From: Patescibacteria group bacterium
Lineage (GTDB): Bacteria > Patescibacteriota > Minisyncoccia > Sungbacterales > JBBTQR01
DNA length: 18,060 bases
Reading direction: 5' to 3'
NCBI GenBank assembly: GCA_038065595.1
Contig: JBBTQR010000017.1
Location: 1 to 18,060, forward strand
Both the position numbers and the translations under genes were made by a program. This document shows positions 913 to 15,821 of this stretch, one piece after another; position 1 is the first letter of the stretch; each line of letters opens with the position of its first letter. A model generated the notes under the pieces. That model saw only the letters and a list, made by a program, of their open reading frames with translations, was not told the DNA's origin and searched no databases.

Positions 913-916
913 ATTT

Positions 917-1435
917 TTAACGAATTAAATCGGTCAAAACATTCTCTGCGTGTTCCGCCGGTTTTACATCTGTATATATTTTTATTATTTCCCCGCGCGG
1001 ATTTATAAGAAACGATGCGCGAAAAGTCCCCAGATATTCCCTGCCCATAAATTTTTTCTTACCCCATACGCCGTATTTTTTTACGACAATTTTTTTCTCA
1101 TCAGATAAAAGTATAAATGGCAACGAATATTTTTCTTTAAATTTTCTATGGCTTTTAGACGGATCTATGGATACGCCAAGCACAAGCGTATCCATTTTTT
1201 CAAATCGCGAAAATGTGTCGCGAATACCGCACGCTTCTTTTGTACATCCCGGCGTATCGTCTTTCGGATAAAAATAAAGCAATACCCAATGCCCAAGGTA
1301 ATCGGAAAGCTTGTGCGTCATTCCGTCCTGATCTGGCAATTCAAAATCCGGAGCTCTATCCCCCACGGCAAGTTTTCGTCCCAAAAGTGGCTCTACTTTC
1401 GGTGCAGATTTTTGTTTTTGCATAATTTTACACAA
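917..1435 (-). CDS. bcp: Peroxiredoxin Bcp (thiol peroxidase, PrxQ/BCP family)
   Basis: Peroxidatic-Cys motif FYPKDDTPGCTKEAC and the PDF.LPDQDG N-terminus. The position 1435 start is a TTG. An in-frame ATG at 1423 (MQKQK…) lies 15 nt downstream of a TATATAAT box and is the more likely start. Confidence 0.9.
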   Translation of the reverse strand: MCKIMQKQKSAPKVEPLLGRKLAVGDRAPDFELPDQDGMTHKLSDYLGHWVLLYFYPKDDTPGCTKEACGIRDTFSRFEKMDTLVLGVSIDPSKSHRKFKEKYSLPFILLSDEKKIVVKKYGVWGKKKFMGREYLGTFRASFLINPRGEIIKIYTDVKPAEHAENVLTDLIR

Positions 1436-1454
1436 TTAATTATATATTTGCGCT

Positions 1455-1784
1455 CTATCTATTATCCCCGCTTCCTTGAATCTGTCCCCGATTTTTTCGG
1501 GACTGAAGTTTTTCTAAATTAGCAATCGCTATATCATCAATTAACAGGTCAAGTTCAGTTGAAATCTGCGCCACATACCACAAAACATCCCCTAATTCTT
1601 TTTTTATTTCCCCTCTATGTTCCGGTTTTACCACTCCTTCGTGATCGCGAATAATTTTTTTTATCTTTTCCGCTACTTCTCCTGCTTCTCCGGCAAGTCC
1701 CAAAGTCGGGTATATAAAATTACTTCCAATGTTTGGATAAACTGCAGTTTCTCTTGATTTTTTCTGATACTCTTCAAATGTCAT
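1455..1784 (-). CDS. MazG-like nucleoside triphosphate pyrophosphohydrolase (small all-alpha NTP-PPase)
   Basis: 109 aa with a MazG-family metal-binding EE..E..D signature: GLAGEAGEVAEKIKK … ELGDVLWYVAQIS. Confidence 0.8.
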   Translation of the reverse strand: MTFEEYQKKSRETAVYPNIGSNFIYPTLGLAGEAGEVAEKIKKIIRDHEGVVKPEHRGEIKKELGDVLWYVAQISTELDLLIDDIAIANLEKLQSRKNRGQIQGSGDNR

Positions 1785-1793
1785 AACCGTATT

Positions 1794-2429
1794 TTAGCTC
1801 ACTTTTGCTCCGCTTACTACAGATTTTTCAGGCATTAAAAGTACCGGACCCTGCTCGCTCTGCGCGGCCAAAAGCATTCCGTTACTCTCCAGTCCCATCA
1901 GTTTTCTTTGCACCAAATTTGCCACGATAATAATTTCACGGTTCATAAGATTATCTGGTTCATAATTTTTACCAATGCCCGCAACGATCTGTCGTTGTTC
2001 ATTACCAAGCGCAAGCTCCAACCGAATTAGTTTTTCAGAGTTTGGCACCCGTTCTGCTTTGACAATTTTTGCCACACGCAAATCAATTTTTTGAAAATCA
2101 GCAAATTCAATAAATTTTAACACCTCTGTTGTTTTAACCGCCGTTTTCTGTTCTCCGCTCACCATTGTTTGCACCACAATACAACCCCGTCTCCATTCAG
2201 GCTTTTCGCCGGTACTGTATACGATGCACAAAAACCCCAAAAGAAGTGCTAACCCATTGGGTAAAAAAAGGGCAATAAGCGTATCACTTGCCGAATGTGA
2301 GCGCGAATCAATAAGCAAAAAAGTCATTACGAAAAGTATGATAAAAATAGCCGTCACGATCCACCCCTCCCACGAGGCAGGCATCCGTCCATAGCCATAC
2401 ATTTTTGTACGAAACCAAATTTTGTTCAT
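1794..2429 (-). CDS. Membrane-anchored tRNA-binding domain protein (CsaA/Trbp111/EMAP-like OB-fold, Myf domain)
   Basis: The N-terminal ~85 aa contain two hydrophobic helices (WIVTAIFIILFVMTFLLI; LIALFLPNGLALLLGFLCIV). The C-terminal ~110 aa, DLRVAKIVKAERVPNSEKLIRLELALGNEQRQIVAGIGKNYEPDNLMNREIIIVANLVQRKLMGLESNGMLLAA, match the tRNA-binding domain found in CsaA and the MetRS C-terminus. A TATAAAAT box lies 6 nt before the ATG. Confidence 0.7.
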   Translation of the reverse strand: MNKIWFRTKMYGYGRMPASWEGWIVTAIFIILFVMTFLLIDSRSHSASDTLIALFLPNGLALLLGFLCIVYSTGEKPEWRRGCIVVQTMVSGEQKTAVKTTEVLKFIEFADFQKIDLRVAKIVKAERVPNSEKLIRLELALGNEQRQIVAGIGKNYEPDNLMNREIIIVANLVQRKLMGLESNGMLLAAQSEQGPVLLMPEKSVVSGAKVS

Positions 2430-2537
2430 ATCATATTTTATAGAACCTCACCGCGCGTTTCAGTCTTTTTGCGCAAGACAATACATTGGACTTTCTCCAC
2501 ATCAATACTTTGAAGTATTGATGTGAGCGCATGCCCC

Positions 2538-3011
2538 CTATACAGTTAAAATTTTGAGCGACTGCTTAATAATATTTTTATCCTTAAAAGTAAACGCGCC
2601 GGCAAAACGATTTCCCTCAAAAAGTTTCGGTAGCCAAATTTTATCATCTGCCCACATGAGATGATATGGGATTTCGTGTTTTTTAAACCACTGCGGGCGC
2701 ATCTCTTCGGATTCAGTCGGCTCGCCTGTAAATTTTTTAACGCTAAAAATATGCACCTCCATAAGCTTTGGATCGCCAACAAATTCAAACACATTCACGC
2801 CTATTTTTTCAATTTCTAGAGCGTGAATACCCGATTCTTCCAAAAGTTCCCGTTTTGCAGCATCTTCAATGCTTTCCCCTTCCTCAACTTTCCCGCCAAA
2901 TCCGTTCCACAAACCCTCTCCAAGTCCCCGTTTTTTCATACCCAAAAGAACATCCGTTTCAGTATGGACAAGGCACAATGAATAAAGTTTTTTATATTGA
3001 AAATTTTCCAT
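2538..3011 (-). CDS. Nudix hydrolase, MTH1/NUDT1-like 8-oxo-dGTP diphosphatase
   Basis: Nudix box GGKVEEGESIEDAAKRELLEESGI. Similarity extends along the full length to the human MTH1 pattern as recalled from memory (LGMKKRG.G.G.WNGFGGKV.EGE.IED.A.REL.EESG … VFEFVG.P.LM.VH.F … E.DEMRP.WF … MW.DD..W.P). Confidence 0.85.
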   Translation of the reverse strand: MENFQYKKLYSLCLVHTETDVLLGMKKRGLGEGLWNGFGGKVEEGESIEDAAKRELLEESGIHALEIEKIGVNVFEFVGDPKLMEVHIFSVKKFTGEPTESEEMRPQWFKKHEIPYHLMWADDKIWLPKLFEGNRFAGAFTFKDKNIIKQSLKILTV

Positions 3012-3039
3012 GCACAGCTTTTATAGAGCATACAGCATA

Positions 3040-3068
3040 TTGCATTTTTAGAAAATACACACTATGCT
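3040..3068 (+). promoter_or_regulatory. Candidate sigma70-type promoter for the zinc-ribbon gene pair
   Basis: TTGCAT (3040-3045), 17-nt spacer, TATGCT (3063-3068). It is about 45 nt upstream of the GGGAGGG Shine-Dalgarno and the ATG at 3115. Confidence 0.4.
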
Positions 3069-3114
3069 ATAAAAACTTATTTAAAGCTCTTTATCAAAAA
3101 AATAGGGAGGGTAT

Positions 3115-3318
3115 ATGTTTTTTGGAATAACAATGCACTGTAGCACGTGCGATGCAAATATTGGGATAGGCGAAACGCGAATTTGTGAAATCTGCGATCC
3201 AACGATAACGCCGTGGGTAACATGGATAACCGATTGGAAATCAAAAACTCCAAAATTATGCGATGCGTGTTTTGAAAAACATATGAGTGCGCATAAAAAA
3301 AACGAAAGTGGTGATTAG
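3115..3318 (+). CDS. Small Cys-rich zinc-ribbon protein (3x CxxC), function unknown
   Basis: 67 aa with a strong SD (AGGGAGGG, 5 nt before ATG). CSTC, CEIC and CDAC motifs are present. Confidence 0.6.
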   Translation: MFFGITMHCSTCDANIGIGETRICEICDPTITPWVTWITDWKSKTPKLCDACFEKHMSAHKKNESGD

Positions 3319-3319
3319 C

Positions 3320-3646
3320 ATGGCTTCCAAAGAAAAAATCAATCAGGTTATTTACGAATACATAAATCGCACGCATGAGCTTTTTTTGCGAAATCGGATG
3401 CCAAATCAAAATGACCAAGATTATTTTATTGATTGTCCGGACTGTGAGAAAGAAAAATCACTTCAATACCACACGAACCATGCAAACGCCGTGAATTGGT
3501 ACTGCGTATGGAGTAAGTGTACATTTCAATTTCCCCCCGACCTTGTCCCGCCAAGTCCCGAAGAACTTGCAAGCGTTTTTTTATACGAAGAAGTACTCGC
3601 TCTAAAACAGCGCGTGGACAAATTGCTTGATTCCTCAAAACGCTAA
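3320..3646 (+). CDS. Small zinc-ribbon protein with C-terminal coiled-coil, function unknown
   Basis: The ATG at 3320 is 1 nt after the upstream stop and has a GGTGA SD, so it looks translationally coupled. The track ORF 3287.. is the longer alternative. The protein has CPDC … C.W.KC and a C-terminal helical tail. Confidence 0.55.
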   Translation: MASKEKINQVIYEYINRTHELFLRNRMPNQNDQDYFIDCPDCEKEKSLQYHTNHANAVNWYCVWSKCTFQFPPDLVPPSPEELASVFLYEEVLALKQRVDKLLDSSKR

Positions 3647-3666
3647 AAAATTACACATAAACAGAC

Positions 3667-3692
3667 ACCTCGCCACGCGCGAGGTTTTTTTG
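3667..3692. terminator. Rho-independent terminator (probably bidirectional)
   Basis: Hairpin cctcgc-cacgc-gcgagg followed by TTTTTTT. It lies between the convergent genes ending at 3646 (+) and 3702 (-). Confidence 0.65.
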
Positions 3693-3701
3693 TATAAAAA
3701 A

Positions 3702-4946
3702 CTACTCATACCGCAACGCTTCAATGGGGCTTTTAAGCGATGCTTTTCGCGCGGGATAAATTCCAAAAACAAGCCCCGTAAGCGTGGAGATGCCCACTGC
3801 TAAAAATATAGAGTTCAGCGAAAGAATAAATATCCAACCGGTCGTGAGAAATTGCTGAAGTGCAAAATACGCAAGCGCAACAACCAAAGAACCAAGCGCG
3901 ATTCCGATTATTCCCCCAGCAAAAGTAAGAATTACCGCCTCCAATAAAAACTGCTGGAGAATGTCGCCATTCGTAGCGCCGACCGCTTTCCGAAGTCCTA
4001 TTTCTTTCGTTCGCTCAACAACAGACACAAGCATAATATTCATAATTCCGATACCGCCGACAATAAGCGAAATGAAAGCGATTGATGTCAAAAAAATAGT
4101 CATAATGGAAGTGATATTTCCTAAGAGCGAAAGGGCGTCTTCCTGCGTTCGAATGGAAAAATCATCTTTATCCGGATCGGTAATGCGATGATTTTGGCGA
4201 ATAACAGAGGTAATGCGCCCCTTTGTAAATTCAATGATGTAAGCGTCATTTGCTTGAATAGTAACGCTGTTGTAATAATCAATTCCTAAAAGTTGTTTTT
4301 GCGCGAGTAAAATCGGAAGAAGAATGAGATTATCCTGATCAACCCCGAAAGGCCCGATCCCCTTCTGCTCTAAAATACCAACGACGCGAAACGAAAGATC
4401 TTTAAGACGAATAACTTTACCAATTGGGTCTTTCTCGCCAAAAAGTGTTCGTGCGATTTCTGAACCAAGCACGGCAACGCGATTAAGGGATTCATTGTCC
4501 GATGCAGAAAAACTTCTTCCCCGTGCGATTTCAAAATTCCGTATGGCGAAAAATTCTTCCGTCGTTCCTGTATAGGTAATCATTGCGTCGTTATTTTCAT
4601 AGACAACCCGTGCCTGTCCGCGAACCTCTGGAGCAGCGCGAATAACACTCGGTTCGCGCCTGAGCGCATCAATGTCCGCTTTCACGAGCGTTTTAATGAT
4701 TACTCCTTGCACCGACGCAGGAGAAGCAAATCTAGAGCCTTTTGTAGCGCCCGGAACGACAAAAATTAAATTTGATCCTATTCCCTGCACCTGACTTAAA
4801 ATAAGATTTTGCGCGGAAGCGCCGATTGACATAAGAACGATAACCGATGATATGCCAATAATAACACCGAGCATCGTCAATGCGGAGCGAACTTTTGCGT
4901 GCCGAATGCCGGCAACTGCCGTTCTAAAAGAATCAATAAGGCGCAT
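3702..4946 (-). CDS. ABC transporter permease, MacB/FtsX family (MacB periplasmic domain + FtsX 4-TM domain)
   Basis: 414 aa. It has an N-terminal TM helix, a large extracytoplasmic domain, and three C-terminal TM helices in the FtsX arrangement. It sits downstream of an ABC ATPase and a membrane-fusion protein. Confidence 0.85.
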   Translation of the reverse strand: MRLIDSFRTAVAGIRHAKVRSALTMLGVIIGISSVIVLMSIGASAQNLILSQVQGIGSNLIFVVPGATKGSRFASPASVQGVIIKTLVKADIDALRREPSVIRAAPEVRGQARVVYENNDAMITYTGTTEEFFAIRNFEIARGRSFSASDNESLNRVAVLGSEIARTLFGEKDPIGKVIRLKDLSFRVVGILEQKGIGPFGVDQDNLILLPILLAQKQLLGIDYYNSVTIQANDAYIIEFTKGRITSVIRQNHRITDPDKDDFSIRTQEDALSLLGNITSIMTIFLTSIAFISLIVGGIGIMNIMLVSVVERTKEIGLRKAVGATNGDILQQFLLEAVILTFAGGIIGIALGSLVVALAYFALQQFLTTGWIFILSLNSIFLAVGISTLTGLVFGIYPARKASLKSPIEALRYE

Positions 4947-4994
4947 ATAAATTTCTACATTATAATTTCCAATGCAACGCGTACATGGCGTAAT

Positions 4995-5705
4995 TTATTT
5001 AAAAAATCCCTCTCCGTTTATGCGGTGTTTTTTCATCAGTTCGTCAACTTCAATCTCCCCATCTTTAAGACGAATAAGGCGATTGGCAAATTCAGCGGTA
5101 TAGGTCTCATGCGTCACCAAAATTATCGTGTGCCCCCCTTTGTTTAGTTTTTCCAAAATATCCATAATCTGCGCGCCAGCGGCAGAGTCAAGATTTCCTG
5201 TCGGCTCATCAGCAAAAATAACATTCGGCTTATTAACAAGTGCTCGCGCTATGGCAACTCGTTGCTTCTGTCCGCCAGACAATTTTCCTGCCTCAGTGTA
5301 TGTTTTTTCAGAAAGTCCAACGGACTGAATCGCTTCCTCAATGCACGAACGGCGCTGTGAAGGAGGGCTATCGGAATATATAAGTGGCATCTCAACATTC
5401 TCGTACACGGTTGAACGCGACAAAAGATTGAATGATTGAAAAACAAATCCCATTTCGCGATTCCTAATTCGCGCTAAGTCAGCATCAGAAAGCTCGCCGA
5501 TGCTTTTTCCAAAAAATGTGTACACACCGCTCGTCGGACGGTCCATAAAACTCAAAATATGAAGAAGCGTTGATTTTCCGGATCCAGACGGACCCATAAT
5601 TGATACGAATTCACCTTTTTTAATTTCAAAAGAAACGCTTTTAAGCGCTGTGATCGGAGCCCCCTCATCAGTAAATTTTTTCGTAATGCTTTCTGCGATA
5701 ATCAT
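4995..5705 (-). CDS. ABC transporter ATP-binding protein (MacB/LolD-like)
   Basis: Walker A GPSGSGKST, ABC signature LSGGQKQRVAIARAL, Walker B IIFADEPTGNLD, and H-loop. It has an ATGA start/stop overlap with the upstream MFP gene. Confidence 0.95.
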   Translation of the reverse strand: MIIAESITKKFTDEGAPITALKSVSFEIKKGEFVSIMGPSGSGKSTLLHILSFMDRPTSGVYTFFGKSIGELSDADLARIRNREMGFVFQSFNLLSRSTVYENVEMPLIYSDSPPSQRRSCIEEAIQSVGLSEKTYTEAGKLSGGQKQRVAIARALVNKPNVIFADEPTGNLDSAAGAQIMDILEKLNKGGHTIILVTHETYTAEFANRLIRLKDGEIEVDELMKKHRINGEGFFK

Positions 5706-7264
5706 TCGCCCGCTTCTTTAAGTCCGACATTTATAACTCGTTCCCCCTCGCTAACACCAGAAACAATTTCTACAAGCCCCTCTTTACCGCGCACGCCAAT
5801 AATAACGGGCACATCTATGATTTTTTTGCCGTTTCTTTTACGAACAAATACTCCATTATCAGTTTCTACGATTGCAAATTGCGGTAATACCAAAACTCCA
5901 TCTTTACGAGCTGTTTCAATAGAAAGATTCGCGGTAAGCCCGCTTTTTAGGCGTGGGTCATACGCATCAAAACTAATAAAAATTTTAAAATTAACCACTC
6001 CGTCAACAATCGTCTCTCCGGGTTCAATAGAAAAAACTTTTCCGATAAAACTCTCTTCCGAAAAAGCATCCACGGTAATCGCAACAAAATTCCCAATTAA
6101 AATTTTTCCAATATCAACCTCCGGAACAAACACTTCAATTTCGTTCTGCTCAAGCGAAATAACCGAAACAATCGCAGAATGTGGCGCGATAATTTCTCCC
6201 TGTTTTGCGTCTTGTTTTGTGATGATTCCATTTATTGGTGAACGAAGAATATTTTTTTCAATCTGTGCGCGAATTCCAATCACCTTCGCTTCCGCCCCCT
6301 TAACTTCCGCAACCTGCACAGCGATTTCTTCCAAAGTTGGTCCTGCCTTTTTAAGGATCAGCTCATTTTTTTCAAGTAGTGAAGAGGAATTGGCGACGCG
6401 AAATTTCTCCTCCGCCGCGGAAAGATTTGTAATGGCGGTATTGATGTTTGTCCGCGCGGTTGAAATGTTCAATCTATATCCGTCAATAGTCGCCTGCGTC
6501 AATCCACCTCCCGCAATCAAGCTATTAACTCCTAAGGCAATCAGATCGGTAAAACCCCTAACCGTTTCAAGATTTTTTTTCGCATCAGCGATGCCAATAG
6601 TCGCGTTTTTGAACGATGAAACAGAAAAATTCTGTTCTGCCCACACGCGAAGGATCTGCTCAATCAAAAATCGCTGATTTTCTGCTAACTGTTTTTGATA
6701 AAATCCTATGATAGAAATCTGCGGACTTGAACTTCGTGGATTATTAAAAAGCTGATCAACAAGATTTCTCACCGCGTCATCGGATTTTGTATATGCGTCG
6801 CGCAACCTATCAAAAAGATTTTGCTCCGCATCTTCAATGGCAATTTCTGCGCTTCGCACTTTTACCTCTTGAATGGCAATCTCTTCTGGACGAGTTCCTT
6901 GCCGTAATTGATCAAGTTTTGCATTTTGTGTCGCGACGCTCGCTTCCATCTGCAAAAGTTCTGCAGACAACTCTTTTTGATCAAGCTCCACAAGAATCTG
7001 TCCCGTTAAAATACGATCTCCGACGCGTGAAAAGACCCGCCGTACCTTCCCTGACCCCTCAAAAGAAAGGGAAACGCTCTCAGTTGGTTTTATTTTCCCG
7101 GTCACAATTACCTCCTCTGCAACGGTTCCGCGAACCACTTCAATGGTTTCTAATTTTGGTGTGGAACTTTTGAAAAAAATATAATACACTCCGACGATTC
7201 CAATTATAATCGCGAGAGGAACAATGAAAGCTTTTTTTAAAATTATTCCAGTAATTATTTTCAT
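5702..7264 (-). CDS. Efflux membrane-fusion (periplasmic adaptor) protein, HlyD/MacA family, long coiled-coil variant
   Basis: 520 aa. It has an N-terminal TM anchor and biotinyl/lipoyl-like beta segments (VVRGTVAEEVIVTGKIKP … ILTGQILVELD). A long helical-hairpin region and a C-terminal beta-barrel follow. It is the first gene of a three-gene operon. Confidence 0.85.
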   Translation of the reverse strand: MKIITGIILKKAFIVPLAIIIGIVGVYYIFFKSSTPKLETIEVVRGTVAEEVIVTGKIKPTESVSLSFEGSGKVRRVFSRVGDRILTGQILVELDQKELSAELLQMEASVATQNAKLDQLRQGTRPEEIAIQEVKVRSAEIAIEDAEQNLFDRLRDAYTKSDDAVRNLVDQLFNNPRSSSPQISIIGFYQKQLAENQRFLIEQILRVWAEQNFSVSSFKNATIGIADAKKNLETVRGFTDLIALGVNSLIAGGGLTQATIDGYRLNISTARTNINTAITNLSAAEEKFRVANSSSLLEKNELILKKAGPTLEEIAVQVAEVKGAEAKVIGIRAQIEKNILRSPINGIITKQDAKQGEIIAPHSAIVSVISLEQNEIEVFVPEVDIGKILIGNFVAITVDAFSEESFIGKVFSIEPGETIVDGVVNFKIFISFDAYDPRLKSGLTANLSIETARKDGVLVLPQFAIVETDNGVFVRKRNGKKIIDVPVIIGVRGKEGLVEIVSGVSEGERVINVGLKEAGE

Positions 7265-7275
7265 AGTACAGCGTC

Positions 7276-7310
7276 ATTGTATCATAAAAAAATTTCACCA
7301 CCTATACCCG
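7276..7310 (-). promoter_or_regulatory. Candidate extended -10 promoter for the efflux operon
   Basis: The minus strand reads TGATACAAT (TGnTACAAT) at 7284..7276. The MFP ATG is about 12 nt downstream with no SD, giving a short-leader mRNA. Confidence 0.4.
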
Positions 7311-7329
7311 CGACATCACCACTTTCAAT

Positions 7330-7992
7330 TTAATGATTTAGCATTTCCAGCAAAATTGGCTTGATTCTGTCGGCGATTATGCGATACCCCTCATCATTTG
7401 GATGTATTGCATCGTACATATAACGAGAACGCCCAAAAACGCCAGAAAGAACATCGGGGATATACGAAACTTTTGTTTTTTGCGCGAGAGATTTAAATTC
7501 TTTTTTATACGCGTCAGAAAAAAACCCGCCACGGACCCCCAAAAGTAATACGGCGCTTCCCTGCGCGTGAATACGGGCGATTATCTCTTCTAAATTTCTA
7601 AATGTGTCCAAAGGTTTGTAACGGCGAATTGCATCATTTCCACCCAAAAGCAAAATAACGATTTTTGGATCATGATTCAAAACATCCAGCGAAACGCGCG
7701 TAAGAGCGGAAAATGTCGTATCGCCGGAAATTCCTGCGTTAATAATTGGTATTTTTAATTCTTGCGACAACAGCGAAACAAGATCATTGCCCTGCGATGA
7801 TCCAACTCCCTCAATTAAACTATCTCCAAAAGCAATAACCGCGCTTCCTGTGCGCGGTTTGTCAATGTATCGGCGATCCATTGAAAAAAAATAAAAAACA
7901 CCTCCCAAAATCAGGACGCCAAACACCGCAATTATTACTTGTGAATTTGTCATGCGCACAGAGCGTGTGCTATTATATATACTCGCATCCAT
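7330..7992 (-). CDS. SGNH/GDSL-family hydrolase (lipase/esterase-like) with N-terminal membrane anchor
   Basis: SGNH blocks: block I FGDSL, block III GGND, block V DAIHPN. An N-terminal TM helix is present. An alternative start (MTNSQ…) lies 13 codons in. Confidence 0.85.
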   Translation of the reverse strand: MDASIYNSTRSVRMTNSQVIIAVFGVLILGGVFYFFSMDRRYIDKPRTGSAVIAFGDSLIEGVGSSQGNDLVSLLSQELKIPIINAGISGDTTFSALTRVSLDVLNHDPKIVILLLGGNDAIRRYKPLDTFRNLEEIIARIHAQGSAVLLLGVRGGFFSDAYKKEFKSLAQKTKVSYIPDVLSGVFGRSRYMYDAIHPNDEGYRIIADRIKPILLEMLNH

Positions 7993-8139
7993 TATACCCG
8001 ACCGAGGGCATTTTTTATAATATATATCTGAACTTATGCGATATGTGGTGGACGCATACAGGCGCTTGATAAATTAAAATTTTAAGCGTACTACTAAAAA
8101 CACGCCCTTTGATATCATGCCAAAATAAGGAGGGATTCT

Positions 8140-8262
8140 ATGGATGCTTTTTTAACAAACGCAGAGCTTGTCGTAATAAATTTTTCCATTTCATTATTTT
8201 GGGTTTTGCTCGTTGTGCTTGTTGCCCTAGCATTTTTCAGCCTTATTGATAATCGCGATTAA
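8140..8262 (+). CDS. 40-aa hydrophobic membrane peptide (toxin-like or bacteriocin-like small protein)
   Basis: Not in the ORF track because it is under 60 aa. A strong SD (AAGGAGGG, 6 nt) precedes the ATG at 8140. It encodes MDAFLTNAELVVINFSISLFWVLLVVLVALAFFSLIDNRD, a single TM helix with a charged C-terminus. It contains the 33-nt repeat shared with the sigma gene. Confidence 0.5.
   Translation: MDAFLTNAELVVINFSISLFWVLLVVLVALAFFSLIDNRD
8166..8198. repeat. 33-bp perfect direct repeat, copy 1 (inside the small-peptide ORF)
   Basis: gcttgtcgtaataaatttttccatttcattatt is identical at 8166-8198 and 14969-15001. In this AT-rich window a 33-nt perfect match is far beyond chance expectation. Confidence 0.9.
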
Positions 8263-8274
8263 AGGAGAAACGCT

Positions 8275-8502
8275 GTGACTACTTTGGAAATCGCATGCTT
8301 GATTTGGATAATTTCTCTTCTTGTTGTTATAACCATTGCTTTCGTGGATAATTTTTTGTATCCTGTCTGCCCCTCTTGTGAGCATAACCTGTATTCACGA
8401 CGATTATCATTTTTTTCTCCCGATGCACTGTGCAAAAAACATGGCACATTCATCATTGCTCTCGCGCATCGCTCTATTTGTTCTGTGACGCACAAAAAAT
8501 AA
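8275..8502 (+). CDS. 75-aa membrane protein with CPSC…C…C motif, function unknown
   Basis: GTG start with an AAAGGAG SD 7 nt upstream, 12 nt after the upstream stop. It has an N-terminal TM helix and is followed by a strong terminator. Confidence 0.5.
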   Translation: MTTLEIACLIWIISLLVVITIAFVDNFLYPVCPSCEHNLYSRRLSFFSPDALCKKHGTFIIALAHRSICSVTHKK

Positions 8503-8515
8503 TAATATCTCGGCA

Positions 8516-8556
8516 TTAAAAACGCCCCGCTTAATTTGAGCGGGGTGTATTTTTAG
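8516..8556. terminator. Rho-independent terminator (bidirectional)
   Basis: Stem cgccccgct (8523-8531) / agcggggtg (8539-8547) with an A-run before and a T-run after. A second hairpin, gttttcgc-tttg-gcgaaaac, at 8578-8596 lies just downstream of the minus-strand gene ending at 8606. Confidence 0.7.
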
Positions 8557-8605
8557 TTCATACCATATAAAAATACAGTTTTCGCTTTGCGAAAACGGTC
8601 CAAAC

Positions 8606-8800
8606 TTATTCTTTACGAGATTTCCAAAAAAGAATAATCGCCAACATTCCAAAAAAAGCTGTGCCAACTCCGCTTACCCACATAGGAATGCTAACCGTTT
8701 CAAATAAAATCTCCCATAAAAAAAGAACGCGGGCAAAGTGCGCAATCGCGATAAAAGCAAAAATCGTTCCAGAAATTTTATGCAGTGTTTTATTCGTCAT
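8606..8800 (-). CDS. Small 2-TM membrane protein, hypothetical
   Basis: ATG at 8800 (MTNKTLHK…) is preceded by an AAAGGAG SD. The longer track ORF extends to 8836. Two hydrophobic helices are present. Confidence 0.5.
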   Translation of the reverse strand: MTNKTLHKISGTIFAFIAIAHFARVLFLWEILFETVSIPMWVSGVGTAFFGMLAIILFWKSRKE

Positions 8801-8967
8801 GCACTCCTTTCTATTTTTTGTTTCCGCCGTTGACACACAGACAGACGAATTTGTTGTGCGTGTCCCGATCTGTCAAACTAAAATAAGCGCTCTGCACTGT
8901 ATGCGAAACTACATCACTTACTATCCTTACCACGCCATCATTTTAAAATATAAATGAACAAAGTTCG

Positions 8968-10281
8968 TTAGACCGCTTTTGCCGCCTCTTCAACGGTAGT
9001 GACCCCCATTAAAACTTTTTCACGAGCGGCGTCTTTCAATGTTTTCATGTTGGCACTCGCAACATATTCTTCAAGAACGCTCATTGAGCTTCGCTCAATT
9101 ATTAACGAACGAAGATTGTTGTCAAGTTCTAAAACCTCATAAATGCCCGTCCGCCCCTGATACCCAGTTCCTCTGCACGCCTCACATCCCATCCCTTTTG
9201 TAAACGAGTATGAATTTTCATCAAGCCCAAAATACAAAAGATATTCAGGATCCGGCACATACGATGAACGACATGTATTACAAATTTTTCTAATAAGTCG
9301 CTGGGAAACAATTCCGTTTAAAGCATATGCAATTAAACTTCGCTCAATATTCATATCTAAAAGACGGGCGATTGTTCCGATGGTCGTATTTGAATGAATC
9401 GTTGAAAACACAAGTCGTCCGGTCAAAGAAGCGCGGATAGTATATTCCGCTGTATCAGCATCTCGAATTTCGCCAATCATAATGATATCAGGATCCTGAC
9501 GAAGAATTGAACGCATGCCGTCTGCATAATTATATCCCTGATCAGGTTTAATTTCGCTCTGCCTAATATCTTTGAAGTGATATTCAACGGGGTCTTCAAG
9601 GGTTATAATGTTTTTTTCTTTTGAACGCAAAGACTGCAGAATTGAATACAGCGTCGTTGATTTGCCTGACCCTGCCGGACCCGTTACAAGAATCATTCCA
9701 TATGTTCGCGCAATCAATTTTTTAAATACCCCAAAATTCTCGGGGCTCATTCCAAGGTTTTCAGGATGCACCAATACTTCTTGCCGATTCAAAACACGCA
9801 AGACGGTCGCTTCACCGTTAATGACGGGGAAAACAGAAACACGAACATCAAGCATCATCTCGCTATTTTTTGAAGCATCCAGAACCGCTCCGACTTTCTC
9901 TTGCTTTTTTTGATCAGTGGCCTTTGCGATAATAAAAAGCTTTGAAAGCCTGTCAACGAACGGCACAGATTTTTCGTCTCCTTGCTCTGAGTACAACTGC
10001 CCAACGCTTGCTGAAAAGTGCCCTTCAACGGGCATTGGATGACGAACGAGAGGAATGTCAGATGCGATTTTAATGCGGTTTAAAATAGATTCGTACTCAT
10101 ACAGCGGAATAGACGCGTGTTCCTGTAAAATTCCATCAACACGAAAACGAATGCGGAGAACATCTAATAATGGCTCAATGTGAATATCGGAAGCACGATC
10201 TTCAAGCGCGCTCGCGAGAATTATTTTGAGAGGATCTTCGTTTTTTAAATCATTCTTTTGTAACATAAAAGTTTTACGCAA
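8968..10281 (-). CDS. Type II secretion / type IV pilus assembly ATPase, GspE/PilB family
   Basis: Walker A GPAGSGKSTT, Asp/His boxes (IMIGEIRD, TIHSNT), and a C-terminal tetracysteine motif CNTCR…CEACRGTG. The position 10281 start is a TTG, and an ATG (MLQKNDL…) lies at 10266. No pilC/pilT/pilM partners are in the window. Confidence 0.9.
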   Translation of the reverse strand: MRKTFMLQKNDLKNEDPLKIILASALEDRASDIHIEPLLDVLRIRFRVDGILQEHASIPLYEYESILNRIKIASDIPLVRHPMPVEGHFSASVGQLYSEQGDEKSVPFVDRLSKLFIIAKATDQKKQEKVGAVLDASKNSEMMLDVRVSVFPVINGEATVLRVLNRQEVLVHPENLGMSPENFGVFKKLIARTYGMILVTGPAGSGKSTTLYSILQSLRSKEKNIITLEDPVEYHFKDIRQSEIKPDQGYNYADGMRSILRQDPDIIMIGEIRDADTAEYTIRASLTGRLVFSTIHSNTTIGTIARLLDMNIERSLIAYALNGIVSQRLIRKICNTCRSSYVPDPEYLLYFGLDENSYSFTKGMGCEACRGTGYQGRTGIYEVLELDNNLRSLIIERSSMSVLEEYVASANMKTLKDAAREKVLMGVTTVEEAAKAV

Positions 10282-10305
10282 AATATAATGACGCGCCCTT
10301 ACTCA

Positions 10306-10506
10306 TTATTGTATAACATCCCCATATGAACTTAAAAACTGCGGGACAACAACCATTAATCCGATAAGTGGTAAAACAAAAACAAGCACTGAACCGATAA
10401 AAGTCCACAAAAGATATTTTTTTGTCGCTTCAACAGACGCGCCAATCTCATCAACTTTTTGGCGAAGCTCACGAATTTCTTTTAAAAGACTTTCTTCCAT
10501 TTTCAA
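10306..10506 (-). CDS. Small membrane protein (N-terminal coiled-coil + 1 TM), hypothetical
   Basis: It lies 24 nt upstream of the PilB-like gene in the same orientation. The position 10506 start is a TTG, and an ATG lies at 10500. A hydrophobic helix LLWTFIGSVLVFVLPLIGLMVVV is present. Confidence 0.4.
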   Translation of the reverse strand: MKMEESLLKEIRELRQKVDEIGASVEATKKYLLWTFIGSVLVFVLPLIGLMVVVPQFLSSYGDVIQ

Positions 10507-10632
10507 ATAATACCATATTTAAAAAATACCCCGCCCCACACACAAACAGTTAATAAAAAATCAACAGATGCCCTTAATTTTTCCATTATCCACCAAAGGT
10601 GGATCAAATCCGCATCACACCATATCATCAAA

Positions 10633-10911
10633 TTACATTTTTTTCTTTAGCGATTCTTCTAGCTTATCAATTTTACTTGATTCAAGACGATGGCTATTCG
10701 GATGTGCTCTAAGCCATTTAATTTTTTCCTGAAGTTCTTTCTCATCAATCCCGCGATGATACGAACCGCTCTTCTTCTCAAGATCACCTAAAAAAATCAT
10801 ATCAACATCGGCAAGCTCCTGCTGACTAAACCCTTCCGAATGCAGATGTCCGCGAACCAGTTTATACTCTTCGCTCCCGACATGAGGTTTTGAATCTCCA
10901 AATAGTCCCAT
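10633..10911 (-). CDS. Hypothetical protein (92 aa, charged/helical)
   Basis: An ORF only. It has K/E-rich composition typical of this genome. No SD and no recognisable domain. Confidence 0.3.
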   Translation of the reverse strand: MGLFGDSKPHVGSEEYKLVRGHLHSEGFSQQELADVDMIFLGDLEKKSGSYHRGIDEKELQEKIKWLRAHPNSHRLESSKIDKLEESLKKKM

Positions 10912-11161
10912 ATACCAGTGAGCAAGAATCTTTAGTGTTATTTACGGTTTTTATACCTCTTGTAGAAAAACAATCAGACAAAAATTGTTTCTTGAAGTGG
11001 TGCAAAACCCCAAACAGCATTATTAAAACTTGCTATTAAATTACTACATTGTCATATAGAGCTCTATTATAGAGCGAAATAACCTTTATTGCAAAGCAAG
11101 CGTTCTCGTGATCATTTAAGAAAAAGCCAAAAACAAATGCGTTGTACCACGCCTATAATAC

Positions 11162-12028
11162 TTATTTTGAAACAACAATCATTGCCGAACGAATTTGTTC
11201 AAATGGCTCGTTTTTACCAGTTACATAATCCATAAGAGCGCCCTCTAATATAGCGTACCCATAACGATACCCTGCCCCCCGATATGTGCCAGGATCATTT
11301 GTAATAAATTCTTGCGCTGTGTCATCGTATCCTGTAATGAGAATTTTATGCCGTTCTGGCCCTGGTTCTGTATAAAATGAATTTTTCAATTTACGACCAT
11401 CAACAGGAACGATAACGAGATTACCGTCTGCCAGCTCTTTTTTAATATCTTTTATGGTAATGTCATAGCGCAAAAACGCATTTGTATATCCAAAATAATC
11501 TTTAATAATCCGATCAAGCGTGTCCTGTGAAGATGTGTCGTGAAATTCGCCGTATTTTTTCTTTTCAAATTCAGATATCGCGATAATTTCTTGAAGAGCT
11601 TCTTCTGGGGTGAGTTTTTTTCCTTCTGCCCAACGAATTGCCATAAGCGAAGCAGCTTCTTCACATCCGTAATCCTGCCGTGGATCATTCCAATCGGCAT
11701 ACGGCGCCTGCGCGGTGAACGGGGCATCAATGAGTATTTTTGTTGAGATTTTGATTGGAGTCGGAATTTGTGTTATGTCGGAAGAAGACGCTGTTTGATT
11801 TTCAACTATAGATAAAAGATCGACTGGCTTCGGGGGTGGTTGGGTTGCAATCACCGGAAGCTCTATTTCTTTTTGCACATTTTTTTCAATGTTTTTTTCA
11901 GCGCTCAAAAAAAGAAATTCGTCCGAACGAACGAATTCCAACTTAGAGATTAGAAAGAAAACAAAAATCGCAATGATCGTTGCGGTAAAAAGCGTAAAAA
12001 GAAAAAATTTTCTTGATATATTACTCAT
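11162..12028 (-). CDS. Membrane-anchored C39-like cysteine peptidase (peptidase_C39_2 / BtrH-like papain fold)
   Basis: N-terminal TM helix, then a PPPKP linker. Candidate catalytic motifs are Q…DYGCEEAASLMAI (Gln/Cys) and HKILITGYDD…FITNDPG (His/Asp), as in C39-like domains. Confidence 0.55.
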   Translation of the reverse strand: MSNISRKFFLFTLFTATIIAIFVFFLISKLEFVRSDEFLFLSAEKNIEKNVQKEIELPVIATQPPPKPVDLLSIVENQTASSSDITQIPTPIKISTKILIDAPFTAQAPYADWNDPRQDYGCEEAASLMAIRWAEGKKLTPEEALQEIIAISEFEKKKYGEFHDTSSQDTLDRIIKDYFGYTNAFLRYDITIKDIKKELADGNLVIVPVDGRKLKNSFYTEPGPERHKILITGYDDTAQEFITNDPGTYRGAGYRYGYAILEGALMDYVTGKNEPFEQIRSAMIVVSK

Positions 12029-12046
12029 GGTGCGTATTGTTATTTT

Positions 12047-12080
12047 ATTATATCACCCTTCCAGCTTTTTCAAAAATCAA
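12047..12080 (-). promoter_or_regulatory. Candidate extended -10 sigma70 promoter for the C39 peptidase gene
   Basis: The minus strand reads TTGAAA-N15-TGATATAAT, with the TGnTATAAT at 12055..12047. The ATG follows about 20 nt downstream with no SD. Confidence 0.45.
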
Positions 12081-12084
12081 ATTT

Positions 12085-12113
12085 TAAAAGCCGTGCTTTC
12101 GCACGGCTTTTAA
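12085..12113. terminator. Rho-independent terminator (bidirectional) ending the sigma/anti-sigma/secreted-protein transcription unit
   Basis: Stem agccgtgc / gcacggct with loop tttc, flanked by AAA and TTTT. It lies just downstream of the minus-strand gene ending at 12142. Confidence 0.7.
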
Positions 12114-12141
12114 AGAATCAAACGACTAATCCGTTCTTTCG

Positions 12142-13122
12142 CTATTGCAAACTTTCATTTCTCACGACAGTCGCATTGATTGTCGTTCCTTCAAGCGCGC
12201 CGTAAACGCGAATCTTGTGACCAACAAGGAATTGCGATAAAGTCGCCCGCGCCCATAATTTATTTAAGATTGATGTGTCAGGCACAATCTGAACTGTATA
12301 GTCAGTTTCGCTCTTGCGTATAACAATCGTCGTCGGAGCCGTTGTTGAGGCAACAGACTGCAGCTTGCCTTCAAATACCCGCTGAAGAATAGCGTGATCA
12401 ACGAATATTTTTATTTTCTTCGCATCAAGCGTGTTCTGAAGATTATTCCAAACGCCTTGCACATTTATTTTGTCTCCCATTTTAATATCTGAAAACGCAA
12501 CATGAACCCCCGCCTTCATAATTTCAGTTGAACTCCCAACAATAATCGTTTGTAATCCCCTATCTTCAGCATCAAGCATAAAGCTCGTTGAGGATGCGCT
12601 CATTGAAAGAACCCTTCCAAAAAAAGAGGCGTTCCGTTTCTGCACAGACCAGTTTTTTATGTAAGTTGCGCGAACCATAAATAAATCAGCGGTGTCCGCG
12701 CGAAGCATGCCATGTACCGTGAGAAAATCGCCGACGGAAATTTCCGCGATAGAAGAATTCCCATTAAATCGTCTCATAAAATTCGTATTGCCATCAGTTT
12801 CAATTCGCACGCGAAGAGAAAAACTCCCCCATGAAATTATTCCGTGTATCGTTGATGACGCTGAAACAGAATCAACTTTTATATTTTGAAACACGCTTTT
12901 TCCGTTGTTATTGATCTGAATAGATGAGCCCGAAGGAATGTCATCGCCTCGCTTGTCGCGCATATCAACACGAAGTTCTTTTTTCCCGTGAGAGTCATCA
13001 TCCCCGCCTTTATCTGTGTCTTTTTTCGCAAACGCAAATTCTGGAGACATAAACAAAGCGCTTCCTACAATGCTCAATACCGCAAACGCTAAAAATGATT
13101 TTATAGCCATATGTGTAAACAT
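12142..13122 (-). CDS. Secreted protein with tandem ~90-aa beta-rich repeats (possibly DUF5666-like)
   Basis: A signal peptide with an AFA|KKD cleavage motif is present, in-frame with the ATG at 13110 (MAIKSF…). An acidic linker follows, then about three tandem beta-rich repeat units (…VHGML…VRATYI…, …AGVHVAF…, …RVYGALEGTTINATVV…). Its position after a sigma/anti-sigma pair is typical of an envelope stress module. Confidence 0.6.
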   Translation of the reverse strand: MFTHMAIKSFLAFAVLSIVGSALFMSPEFAFAKKDTDKGGDDDSHGKKELRVDMRDKRGDDIPSGSSIQINNNGKSVFQNIKVDSVSASSTIHGIISWGSFSLRVRIETDGNTNFMRRFNGNSSIAEISVGDFLTVHGMLRADTADLFMVRATYIKNWSVQKRNASFFGRVLSMSASSTSFMLDAEDRGLQTIIVGSSTEIMKAGVHVAFSDIKMGDKINVQGVWNNLQNTLDAKKIKIFVDHAILQRVFEGKLQSVASTTAPTTIVIRKSETDYTVQIVPDTSILNKLWARATLSQFLVGHKIRVYGALEGTTINATVVRNESLQ

Positions 13123-13154
13123 TAATTTAATTAAAAATTTTTGACCCTACTATA

Positions 13155-13183
13155 TAGACGAAGTAAGCTGGATTTTCTTACAA
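13155..13183 (-). promoter_or_regulatory. Candidate ECF-sigma-type promoter (TGTAAG-N16-CGTCTA)
   Basis: The minus strand reads TTGTAAG (13183..13177), a 16-nt spacer, and CGTC (13160..13157). This resembles the SigW/SigX/SigM-class consensus TGwAAC-N16-17-CGTC/CGTA. It lies about 30 nt upstream of the secreted-repeat protein gene. Confidence 0.4.
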
Positions 13184-13235
13184 AAACTCTATCGCGGTCC
13201 ATAAGAAAATATTTTTAATCAAAACGCTACCCACA

Positions 13236-14429
13236 CTATTCCATAAATTCGCTTTTTTTATGGGCCTTTTCGCGCATTTCATCTTTTAGAGGGCTTTTAA
13301 TTTTTTCGCCGGAGGCGGACACGCCTTGTTCATTTTCTGATCCTCGTTCATCGTTTGTATCATTTAAATCACGCCCCCGCTTCTTTTCTTGTTTCTCGGT
13401 GCGGTCTCTTCGTATTTCGTTTTTATTTTCATTATGATTATTGTCCCCATTTTCCTCTATTGAAACCTGTATGTGAAATTCCTTATTTGCATTGATCAAT
13501 ACCCGCGCCCTTTCAAGCGTTCTCATCGCTTTCTGAAAAAGCGAAAAGGCTTTGCCGTATTTCCCCTCATTTTGTTTCGTTTTCCCTTCGGCAATTATTT
13601 CAATTACACCTGAAAGTCGTTTTTTTATTTCGTCTGTTGCCAAATCTCCCGATCCTAATGCGATGCCGTCAATAAACGCGTTCATTTCCTGAAGTTTTTT
13701 TTCTACTTCCACACGCATATCTTCGGAAGATTTTTTTGCTTTGTCGTCTTTTTTGTTTTCAATATTTTCTTCTAAATTTTTTCTTTTTTTACCAACTTCC
13801 CGTATAGCATTTTGCGCCGATACGGTAATTGGCGCAAGCGCATAATCCGAATCCGCGTCATCTTCGGTTAATTTTTGAAGGATTTTATCATGCGCCTCAA
13901 GTTCCGCCTCAAAATTAGAATTAATGCGCGCTGCGACTTCAAAATCTCCACCATTTTCAATGGTTGCTATTTTTATTTCTGCGTTTTTACGATGCTCGTT
14001 GAATTTTTCCTGAAGGGCTAAGCGAACCTCTGGCGTAATAATTCTTTTTTCAACCGTCAATCGTTCGGACTCTTCCAGTCGTTTTGTAGCAAGTTTTGTT
14101 TCCCATTCTACCCTTGATTTTGGAGAAAATTTTAACAATCCACGAATCTCTTCGTTTACATTAATTTTTACCGGATACAGAATATCTCCGGGAAGCGTTC
14201 CCTCTGCTCCAAATGCGATTCCCGCTCCCGAAAGCATGCTTGCGATAAGCACGAGTGGAACGGTTCTGTGTATCGCGAAAAACGCGAAAAGCTGGTCGCG
14301 TAATGCCACGCGAATCGGTGGGCGATATGCGTGCATATAAATGCGAAGCTCATTTCTAACGCGCGCGCGTTCATTTTCGGCAAGAGATATATTTTTCGCT
14401 TGCTGTATTATTTCGTGAAAGTTTTTCAT
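13236..14429 (-). CDS. Putative membrane-anchored anti-sigma factor (short cytoplasmic N-domain, 1 TM, long coiled-coil/charged ectodomain; possibly DUF5667-like)
   Basis: It has an ATGA overlap with the upstream ECF sigma gene. A single TM helix lies around residues 60-80 (LVLIASMLSGAGIAFGA). The K/E-rich helical extracytoplasmic region ends in a low-complexity acidic/basic tail. Confidence 0.55.
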   Translation of the reverse strand: MKNFHEIIQQAKNISLAENERARVRNELRIYMHAYRPPIRVALRDQLFAFFAIHRTVPLVLIASMLSGAGIAFGAEGTLPGDILYPVKINVNEEIRGLLKFSPKSRVEWETKLATKRLEESERLTVEKRIITPEVRLALQEKFNEHRKNAEIKIATIENGGDFEVAARINSNFEAELEAHDKILQKLTEDDADSDYALAPITVSAQNAIREVGKKRKNLEENIENKKDDKAKKSSEDMRVEVEKKLQEMNAFIDGIALGSGDLATDEIKKRLSGVIEIIAEGKTKQNEGKYGKAFSLFQKAMRTLERARVLINANKEFHIQVSIEENGDNNHNENKNEIRRDRTEKQEKKRGRDLNDTNDERGSENEQGVSASGEKIKSPLKDEMREKAHKKSEFME

Positions 14430-14992
14430 ATTTCAAAAATATGTTTTACCGATTGTAATCCTCGATGAATACGCACTGAAACGGCGTTTTCGCTTTCATT
14501 CAAAATCTTGGCAATTTCGCTAGGCGACATATCATCAACATACCGCATAATTACAACATCCCGATATTTTTTATCAATGGAATTAATCGCTTCAATGACC
14601 TCGCGTGTTTCAGCCGAATGACGCATAGCGATGTGTCCGGCTATCGCGGGATCAAAACCAAATTCTTCCTGCATTGTATCCAAAGATTCTTCTCGTTTTT
14701 TCTTCCAGTCATCAATGATTAAATTATTGGCAACTTTATATAAAAACGCTCTGATGTTGGTAACTTCATTGCCGGAAGCAAGATATTCCCATGTCTTTGT
14801 ATACGCTTCCTGCATTACATCGCGCGCGATTTCTTCGTCATATACACGGAAAAAACAATGCCTAAATATGGCGTCAGAATGTTCATCGTATGCATTAATA
14901 AACGGTATTAAACCATTTGTTCCGACGGCACGCTGAGGAGGTGTGCGGAAGCGCCCACCTCCCTCATCGCTTGTCGTAATAAATTTTTCCAT
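14426..14992 (-). CDS. ECF (group IV) RNA polymerase sigma-70 factor
   Basis: Region 2 is FRHCFFRVYDEEIARDVMQEAYTKTWEYL. Region 4 HTH is DVVIMRYVDDMSPSEIAKILNESENAVSVRIHRGLQSVK. The start is ambiguous between the ATG at 14992 (MEKFITTS…) and a TTG at 15058. Confidence 0.9.
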   Translation of the reverse strand: MEKFITTSDEGGGRFRTPPQRAVGTNGLIPFINAYDEHSDAIFRHCFFRVYDEEIARDVMQEAYTKTWEYLASGNEVTNIRAFLYKVANNLIIDDWKKKREESLDTMQEEFGFDPAIAGHIAMRHSAETREVIEAINSIDKKYRDVVIMRYVDDMSPSEIAKILNESENAVSVRIHRGLQSVKHIFEI

Positions 14993-15001
14993 TTCATTAT
15001 T
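14969..15001. repeat. 33-bp perfect direct repeat, copy 2 (covers the ECF sigma ATG and first 8 codons on the opposite strand)
   Basis: The same 33-mer as at 8166-8198. On the minus strand it reads AATAATGAA-ATG GAA AAA TTT ATT ACG ACA AGC, which is nt -9 to +24 of the sigma start. Confidence 0.9.
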
Positions 15002-15155
15002 ACCCGTATTGTTCTTTATATAAGACGAAATAATGCCATATTTCTTACGCAAAAACAATGCAAAATGGCAAGAGTATAAACTCCTGTTTTTTTTAAAACC
15101 CCCTCATTCCCGTCTGTTTATATAAAGATTTTTTATACTGGCAAGCAAAAAACTA

Positions 15156-15181
15156 CCAATAAAAACAAGTGTTTTTATTGG
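15156..15181 (-). terminator. AT-rich hairpin followed by a T-run on the minus strand (possible terminator or insulator upstream of the sigma promoter)
   Basis: ccaataaaaac-aagt-gtttttattgg is an 11-bp stem. On the minus strand it is followed by TAGTTTTTTG. Confidence 0.3.
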
Positions 15182-15254
15182 TACAAAAAAGTTATCCACA
15201 GTTATGCATACAATTACACTTGCGTATTTTTTTCGCAGTGATAGACTATAAAAT

Positions 15255-15345
15255 GTAACTTAGGTTACATCGTTCTTTCATCTCGGGGCTTCGGTCCCAC
15301 ATTTTCTCTTCTTGGGGTTTGCTACGGCAAACCCTTTTTATTTTA
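15255..15345 (+). ncRNA. Candidate ~90-nt small RNA (three hairpins including a C(UUCG)G tetraloop, with an intrinsic terminator)
   Basis: On the + strand the first hairpin is gtaac-ttag-gttac (15257-15270). The second is gggGC-UUCG-GUccc (a 5-bp stem with a G-U wobble and a UUCG tetraloop). The third is the terminator ggggtttgc-tacg-gcaaaccc followed by TTTTTATTTT (15314-15345). A weak upstream promoter reads TTGCGT-N16-TAGACT (15220-15247). There is no ORF, and it is antisense to the flanking minus-strand genes. Confidence 0.35.
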
Positions 15346-15784
15346 ACTAGACTAGATATGATCATTTCTCACGATAGAACAAAAACCGCCAAATGCGTGT
15401 GCACATTACCTTCCGGTTCCACATGGACCACGGCATTGCTTGCGTCAATTGTCGGAGAACGATGAGTTGTTTTTGGAGTAGAACGAATTCCCAAGCTTGT
15501 TACATTTGGAGCAAAAAATCTTAATACATATAAATAGGCGTATACATTCGCGCATTCTAAAATTCTTATGGCGGGACCGACACTCAGACTTCCCCAAGAA
15601 GCTCCATTCAATAAAATTCTCGTTTCAGCGGCCGCCGATACTATGTTAAAAGGTCTGGTTCTACAATTAAAAATCGGGGGGCACTTGTCATCCCGATACA
15701 AAACCAAATCTGGAAAATAAAAAAAACCGCAAACGAAAAATTAAATATAGAAAAATTCGACGGGTTTGCGTTTGTTCCACTTGT

Positions 15785-15821
15785 TTAAAAAATCCCCAAT
15801 TCGCGATATCGCGAATTGGGG
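15785..15821 (-). terminator. Rho-independent terminator of the flotillin-like gene
   Basis: A 28-nt perfect palindrome ccccaattcgcgat|atcgcgaattgggg (15793-15820). On the minus strand it is followed by ATTTTTTAAAC, and it lies 36 nt after the stop at 15857. Confidence 0.75.

Follow-up and report, generated by a model that had tools for sequence, protein, structure and literature searches.

Organization of the locus

The window analysed here is a stretch of 18,060 nucleotides (nt) from the metagenome-assembled genome of a groundwater bacterium of the Patescibacteria group (CPR; source aquifer wells Hainich H41/H51; assembly GCA_038065595.1, contig JBBTQR010000017.1, positions 1 to 18,060). 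Nearly all of its large genes are found on the minus strand. Amid them lies a compact plus-strand cassette (8025-8566) that comprises a promoter region, a leader, two open reading frames (ORFs) coding for products of 40 and 75 amino acids (aa), and a terminator. It is probably an autonomous unit, made of a conserved gene for a membrane zinc-knuckle protein (the 75-aa product) and of a recent insertion that carries the 40-aa ORF upstream of it. The initial annotation of this DNA had described a compact unit in minus-strand surroundings with strong Shine-Dalgarno (SD) sequences, tight spacing and a strong terminator. Sequence reading combined with ORF and terminator calls finds every one of these features in the same place. 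The observation is confirmed; its interpretation as a small regulatory or toxin-like module is partly supported.

The cassette limits are defined by comparison with L002, a metagenome-assembled contig labelled Saccharibacteria (~80% nucleotide identity), whose homology to the window reaches ~8019-8024 and is back at 8567. L002 has an 80-aa orthologue of the 75-aa protein preceded by its own perfect promoter and SD and followed by a terminator. The perfect TTGACA-17-TACAAT promoter found 5' of the orthologue is the counterpart of a promoter-like site in the window (8066-8094), TTGATA-17 nt-TACTAC, which aligns with it and features a degraded -10 hexamer. The window site is not listed by the consensus promoter scan because its -10 hexamer is without the last T. 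The ancestral 5' leader and SD that follow (8101-8134, with the SD AAGGAGGG at 8127-8134) are homologous to those localized directly before the L002 gene. The next ~135 nt (8135-8272), which code for the 40-aa ORF, its stop codon and a second SD, form a single gap in the pairwise alignment. The exact ends of this segment are ambiguous owing to the repetition of an SD-like sequence.

The 40-aa ORF (MDAFLTNAELVVINFSISLFWVLLVVLVALAFFSLIDNRD, 8140-8262) starts at ATG 8140, with a spacer of 5 nt from SD AAGGAGGG, and ends at TAA 8260-8262. Its product has one hydrophobic segment (residues 17-35; mean Kyte-Doolittle hydropathy 2.82) and a carboxyl terminus, IDNRD, with one arginine and two aspartates. 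The description of a single-helix peptide with a charged tail in the initial annotation was accurate for the hydrophobic segment, but the tail is not basic. The second SD, AAAGGAG (8261-8267), as read from the sequence, overlaps the TAA and is separated by a 7-nt spacer from GTG 8275, the start of the 75-aa gene (8275-8502). ATG 8140 and GTG 8275 are 135 nt apart, and both ORFs are thus in one frame. The intrinsic terminator (8522-8556), readable on both strands, consists of a 12-pair stem (7 GC; 8522-8548) with ATTTTT behind it. A conserved counterpart accompanies the L002 orthologue and a gene remnant in a second close relative, L017.

The NCBI record lists the 40-aa ORF as MEK7636395.1 (AAB362_01805) and a 64-aa ORF downstream of the cassette as MEK7636396.1 (AAB362_01810). 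These accessions and locus tags are consecutive across the 75-aa gene, which is therefore unannotated in the contig record. The NCBI annotation has the non-conserved 40-aa ORF and lacks the conserved 75-aa gene.

A conserved family of small membrane proteins

A word-indexed protein search with the 75-aa ORF returned its self-match alone, and the family emerged from an exhaustive phmmer search of 1.84 billion representatives (cut-off E <= 1e-3). This search yielded 31 proteins, query included, of which 29 are true relatives of 58-102 aa; the match P0005 is a repetitive 1643-aa artefact. The family alignment shows an amino-terminal hydrophobic helix followed by D..YPxCPxCxxNLxSxRxxFFxxxAxCxxHGxF. 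Residues P30, C32, C35, C53 and H56 are invariant in the 31 sequences, while N38, R43 and G57 are nearly so. The conserved set of potential metal ligands is C32-x2-C35 ... C53-x2-H56, which amends the motif CPSC...C...C proposed by the initial annotation: its first three cysteines are invariant (C32, C35 and C53), but C69 is not conserved in the alignment and the fourth ligand is H56.

The L002 orthologue is 61% identical to the window protein over 64 aligned residues (tblastn) and 53% identical in the family alignment. The dN/dS ratio of this pair (Nei-Gojobori), 0.15 for the whole gene, amounts to 0.31 for the helix and to 0.06 for residues 28-60. Judged by these comparisons, the 75-aa ORF is a genuine conserved gene under purifying selection and forms the conserved core of the cassette. 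Conservation of the reading frames in relatives had been named beforehand as the observation on which the proposed module would stand or fall; the 75-aa ORF passes this test with its remote homologues and its low dN/dS, and the 40-aa ORF fails it.

Pfam, NCBIfam, PADLOC and PHROGs give no above-threshold match for the product of either ORF, in agreement with the earlier statement that neither belongs to a characterised family. Matches of the 75-aa ORF in the curated libraries are at noise level (TniQ, E 0.003; one PHROG, E 0.06), and the protein has no phage match. Family paralogues are found in tandem in a Candidatus Yanofskybacteria genome (L014 5001-5225, COV29_03445; 5286-5483, COV29_03440). 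One member, P0014 (JGI 3300048050, L016 2910-3152), an 80-aa protein with a transmembrane (TM) helix and a zinc knuckle, is named 'tRNA(Ile2) C34 agmatinyltransferase TiaS' in its source, which is almost certainly an erroneous name prompted by the zinc ribbon. The family defined here, so far unnamed, combines a TM helix with a CCCH zinc knuckle in Patescibacteria and is under strong purifying selection. Such families belong to the functional dark matter of bacteria with reduced genomes and an episymbiotic lifestyle.

Predicted fold, topology and role of the 75-aa protein

Structure prediction, a check suggested by the initial annotation, was informative for the 75-aa protein. AlphaFold2 (AF2), supplied with the family alignment, predicts a TM helix and a small beta domain with a mean predicted local distance difference test score (pLDDT) of 88.8. 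The helix covers residues 3-28 (8281-8358; best 19-mer hydropathy 3.03) and the strands residues 41-43, 50-53 and 57-60, with pLDDT 93-96 across residues 31-60. No lysine or arginine is found on the amino-terminal side of the helix and seven are present on its carboxyl-terminal side. According to the positive-inside rule, the Cys/His domain is therefore predicted to be cytoplasmic and the amino terminus to be outside.

The ~35-residue cytoplasmic domain, which starts right after the helix, would fold around one structural metal, most likely Zn(II), held by C32, C35, C53 and H56. The first putative zinc knuckle is C32-P-S-C35 (8368-8379) and the second is C53-K-K-H56 (8431-8442). The two conserved knuckles, with short beta-strands between and after them, are the features expected of zinc-ribbon and treble-clef folds, and the domain is modelled as a zinc-ribbon or treble-clef-like knuckle pair. 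The protein may act as an adaptor tethered to the membrane, its zinc knuckle binding a protein or nucleic-acid partner on the cytoplasmic side.

Relationship to known zinc-binding and anti-sigma proteins

The zinc ribbons of Top1 C4, DUF6758, DUF3039 and HMPTM (PF01396, PF20544, PF11238 and PF23545, respectively) share with the family a CPxC knuckle placed first, followed by a short beta-hairpin with a conserved arginine and aromatic residues and, ~17-18 residues on, by a second C-x2-(C/H) knuckle. Between 6 and 16 of 30 family members have sub-threshold matches to these models, but none reaches the gathering score and the window protein has no match at all. The family differs by its fourth ligand, which is a histidine and not a cysteine, and by the fusion of the domain to an amino-terminal TM helix in proteins of 58-102 aa. 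The zinc-ribbon ribosomal protein L37Ae/L43 is also counted among the closest known systems.

C32/C35 and C53/H56 fall on the C-x2-C...C-x2-H ligands of LIM finger 2 (PF00412; PDB access codes 1x62 and 1x64), the second knuckle of the family aligning with its C-x2-H. The profile alignment, whose E-value is marginal (1.2e-3), shows equal ligand spacing, with N-L and F likewise conserved. Whereas LIM domains are soluble double fingers of eukaryotes, the family is predicted to have a single finger on a membrane anchor, and the likeness is a structural analogy, not membership.

The 75-aa protein shares with ZAS (zf-HC2) anti-sigma factors a single membrane pass, a zinc site in the cytoplasm (here a predicted one) and a gene for an extracytoplasmic function (ECF) sigma factor nearby. 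ZAS proteins have an amino-terminal helical anti-sigma domain of ~90 residues with an H-x3-C-x2-C motif that precedes the TM segment, whereas the order is reversed in the 75-aa protein and its domain is a beta knuckle of ~35 residues. The protein has no match to PF13490 and lacks the ZAS architecture. A ZAS-like role is also opposed by the DUF5667 partner that the sigma gene already has directly downstream and by the family members found elsewhere without a sigma neighbour. The ECF sigma gene overlaps the 397-aa DUF5667 gene by 4 nt and a DUF5666 gene comes next (12142-15058, minus strand). These genes presumably form the operon of the sigma factor and its own membrane partner, unrelated to the cassette.

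Genomic contexts of the cassette

The gene is monocistronic in seven family loci, where it has its own sigma-70-like promoter and SD, usually a terminator, and often an orientation opposite to that of its neighbours. No partner gene and no conserved synteny are found across the seven contexts, and their small neighbouring ORFs are mutually unrelated. The initial annotation had proposed to look for such synteny; no neighbour is shared. Its view of the two ORFs as a paired module is equally not sustained. The 40-aa ORF is missing from L002, from L017 and from the seven family contexts, none of which has an upstream small ORF, and its product is a cluster of one in the protein collection with no family, PDB or PHROGs relative.

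The slot between the GDSL hydrolase gene and the 64-aa gene, occupied by the zinc-ribbon cassette in the window, is variable in close relatives. L002 has in this slot (2545-3602) a gene for a 337-aa class-A beta-lactamase-like protein instead of the cassette, and its intact zinc-ribbon cassette is localized ~4.5 kb from there, beside a gene for a MacB-like permease. In the L017 slot (2204-2378), the end of the beta-lactamase-like gene is succeeded by what is left of the zinc-ribbon gene, its 3' part from about codon 50 on, and by the terminator of the latter. In the simplest history suggested by these arrangements, the slot ancestrally held the cassette, which the L002/L017 lineage lost there by overwriting but kept as a second copy. 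Maintenance of the gene despite overwriting of its locus is consistent with selection for the zinc-ribbon gene. Metagenomes were also scanned with the PilB-like ATPase as anchor; apart from one near-identical contig, the scan yielded only relatives of ~36% and no further informative strains.

Origin of the 40-aa ORF

The leader and SD of the 40-aa ORF correspond to those that directly precede the L002 80-aa gene, with the one gap of ~135 nt between them and the window gene. GTG 8275 (VTTLE...) aligns with the ATG start of L002 (MTLG...). The SD of the 40-aa peptide is therefore the one that ancestrally served the zinc-ribbon gene. Within the ORF lies a 33-mer (GCTTGTCGTAATAAATTTTTCCATTTCATTATT, 8166-8198) that codes for LVVINFSISLF, the opening part of the peptide's hydrophobic stretch. 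Positions 14969-15001 of the same DNA strand are 100% identical to it; there, 6.8 kb away, this strand is antisense to the ECF sigma gene. A shuffle control gave no match in 200 trials even with 3 mismatches allowed. No similarity extends into the sequences flanking the match, no donor for the rest of the insertion is found within the 18 kb, and the 33-mer is not found in viral contigs.

An insertion of ~135 nt has most likely landed between the ancestral SD and the start of the zinc-ribbon gene. It took this SD for the new ATG and added a stop codon and a second SD. Translation of the zinc-ribbon gene would now start at GTG 8275, probably by coupling to the termination event on the ORF before it. 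The 33 nt shared with the sigma locus probably derive from the antisense strand of the ECF sigma gene, in which A-rich codons yield a hydrophobic peptide when read in reverse. The 40-aa product is therefore best regarded as coming from a very young upstream ORF or proto-gene, strain-specific, and not as a conserved partner. Such a micro-ORF, with a dated origin, an SD hijacked by an insertion and a hydrophobic segment derived from antisense coding DNA, is relevant to proto-gene birth in bacteria. The 33-nt repeat does not stem from an assembly artefact. The arrangement recurs in independent assemblies of other samples (e.g. ENA Hain_H41), and an assembler cannot make an internal 33-nt copy between unique flanks.

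Several points weigh against a conserved gene with a recent insertion. Metal binding and topology of the 75-aa protein are model-based predictions, and the adaptor function, drawn from architecture, is a guess. Transcription is not assured with the degraded -10 sequence (TACTAC) seen in the window. The comparison relies on n=2 close relatives, and a deletion in their lineage instead of an insertion in this one would be a less likely explanation. Finally, the carboxyl-terminal half of the 40-aa product (residues 17-38) scores 7.1 bits against the TM+Asp profile of the family, a value reached by none of 300 shuffles (maximum 6.0), which would fit a decayed duplicate somewhat better than a pure insertion.

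According to this alternative, the 40-aa ORF would be the remnant of a tandem paralogue or of a second TM helix at the amino terminus of the same protein, cut by the in-frame TAA at 8260 and later patched with the 33-mer. Besides the profile score, it would account for the common frame of the two ORFs, 135 nt apart, but a shared frame has a chance expectation of 1 in 3. An amino-terminal extension with an extra hydrophobic segment exists in three family members (P0015, P0020 and P0021) and tandem paralogues are known in the Yanofskybacteria genome; yet BLASTP of the 40-aa product against P0015 gives no match, and at the DNA level the ORF aligns to the 5' part of the 75-aa gene with a score of 18, not significant against a shuffle mean of 17. 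The arrangement of the start is also at odds with a remnant: GTG 8275 has a proper SD before it and aligns with the ATG of the orthologue, and the leader upstream of the first SD directly abuts the gene in L002. Decay of a duplicate is thus an unlikely origin for the 40-aa ORF.

The 33-mer and the ECF sigma gene

The copy of the 33-mer in the ECF sigma gene (14969-15001, minus strand) codes for NNEMEKFITTS and holds the in-frame ATG 14992, at which NCBI starts the sigma factor (188 aa, MEKFITTS...). ECF profiles start matching at residue 53-57 of the longest sigma ORF; a downstream start is therefore favoured, and the 33-mer then covers positions -9 to +24 of ATG 14992. The start of the sigma gene (minus strand, 14992 and the region of ~15045-15090) is ambiguous among TTG 15058, TTG 15052 and ATG 14992, none of which has a good SD. 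The only strong SD upstream of sigma (ACAGGAG) precedes by 9 nt a TTG in another frame, the first codon of an 8-codon ORF (MPFCIVFA) that could be a leader peptide.

The initial annotation had noticed an antisense 33-mer and assigned it to the module. The repeat is real, but it is antisense to the sigma gene 6.8 kb off and not to its own unit. It represents a copy, within the 40-aa ORF, of that distant antisense strand and not an antisense RNA gene for the cassette.

This complementarity might give the cassette transcript a second function. The 33-nt complement would pair in trans with the initiation region of the sigma mRNA and either block its translation or trigger cleavage of the duplex, so that expression of the cassette would be tied to shut-down of the sigma regulon. 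The 33/33 complementarity is far beyond chance, the predicted duplex between the two mRNAs (33 bp) has an energy of -44.7 kcal/mol, and the unit has its own promoter-like site and terminator. The target spans the start preferred by both NCBI and the ECF profiles, but where sigma translation begins is uncertain: Prodigal-type calls place it at TTG 15052, and none of the candidates is preceded by a good SD. Both the L002 cassette and the L017 remnant lack the pairing segment, which is therefore not a conserved regulator and which lies within a well-initiated ORF whose translating ribosomes would compete with pairing. A perfect identity over 33 nt is expected from recent copying without selection. 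Such antisense control of the sigma factor is improbable. The perfect identity, the absence in relatives and the location within the ORF are equally expected of a recent, functionless templated patch.

Dual-function RNAs that base-pair and also code for a small peptide include SgrS/SgrT, SR1/SR1P and RNAIII, whose pairing occurs by short, imperfect and conserved seeds, mostly outside the ORF. The cassette is similar to them in being a short RNA with its own predicted promoter, a small peptide and complementarity to the initiation region of a regulator mRNA. It differs in its perfect 33-mer, which lies within the ORF and is not conserved in relatives, and in being known from sequence alone. It is quite doubtful that the templated 33-nt patch turned the cassette mRNA into a trans-repressor of sigma, an event in which a dual-function RNA and a hydrophobic micro-peptide would have been born together in a single strain.

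Comparison with type I toxin-antitoxin loci

The initial annotation had found the 40-aa peptide reminiscent of type I toxins. In its full form this proposal makes the peptide a toxin or small membrane regulator under RNA control and the 75-aa protein its partner. The examples hok/sok, tisB/istR and ibs/sib illustrate type I toxin-antitoxin loci. The unit is like such loci in its hydrophobic single-helix peptide of less than 50 aa (below the 60 aa set as a size limit), in its excellent SD and in its compact, independently terminated organization. It is unlike them in other respects: neither an antisense RNA gene nor a structured leader was found, the peptide is neither conserved nor present in several copies, and its tail is not basic. 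No minus-strand promoter-like site is present in 7700-9100 and no Rfam match within the window. The predicted leader fold (8098-8290) has an energy of -38.6 kcal/mol, compared with -39.9 on average for shuffles (z = 0.31), and is not unusually stable; on the same grounds, the z-score and the lack of an Rfam match, a riboswitch or other leader structure was rejected. PADLOC, Pfam, NCBIfam and PHROGs offer no match either. Relatives lack the peptide, the 75-aa gene is a solitary gene at all other loci, and the SD of the peptide is the ancestral one of the zinc-ribbon gene. A type I toxin module is very improbable, nor is the 75-aa protein a toxin. What catches the eye, the hydrophobic peptide, is the part of the locus that is not conserved, and the toxin interpretation should not be passed on.

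Additional features of the window

The cassette is flanked by the genes for the GDSL hydrolase (7330-7992) and for the 64-aa two-helix membrane protein (8606-8800), the latter followed by the gene for the T2SSE/PilB ATPase (8968-10281), all three on the minus strand. An inverted repeat of 15 nt (8093-8107/8543-8557, 13/15 complementary) connects the 3' arm of the terminator with the predicted start of the transcript. Its interpretation as the terminal inverted repeats of a mobile element was rejected; the repeat is not conserved in the L002 cassette and is probably due to chance. Two intergenic regions of the window (618-659 and 15794-15850) have long, near-perfect palindromic hairpins with A and T runs that resemble bidirectional intrinsic terminators.

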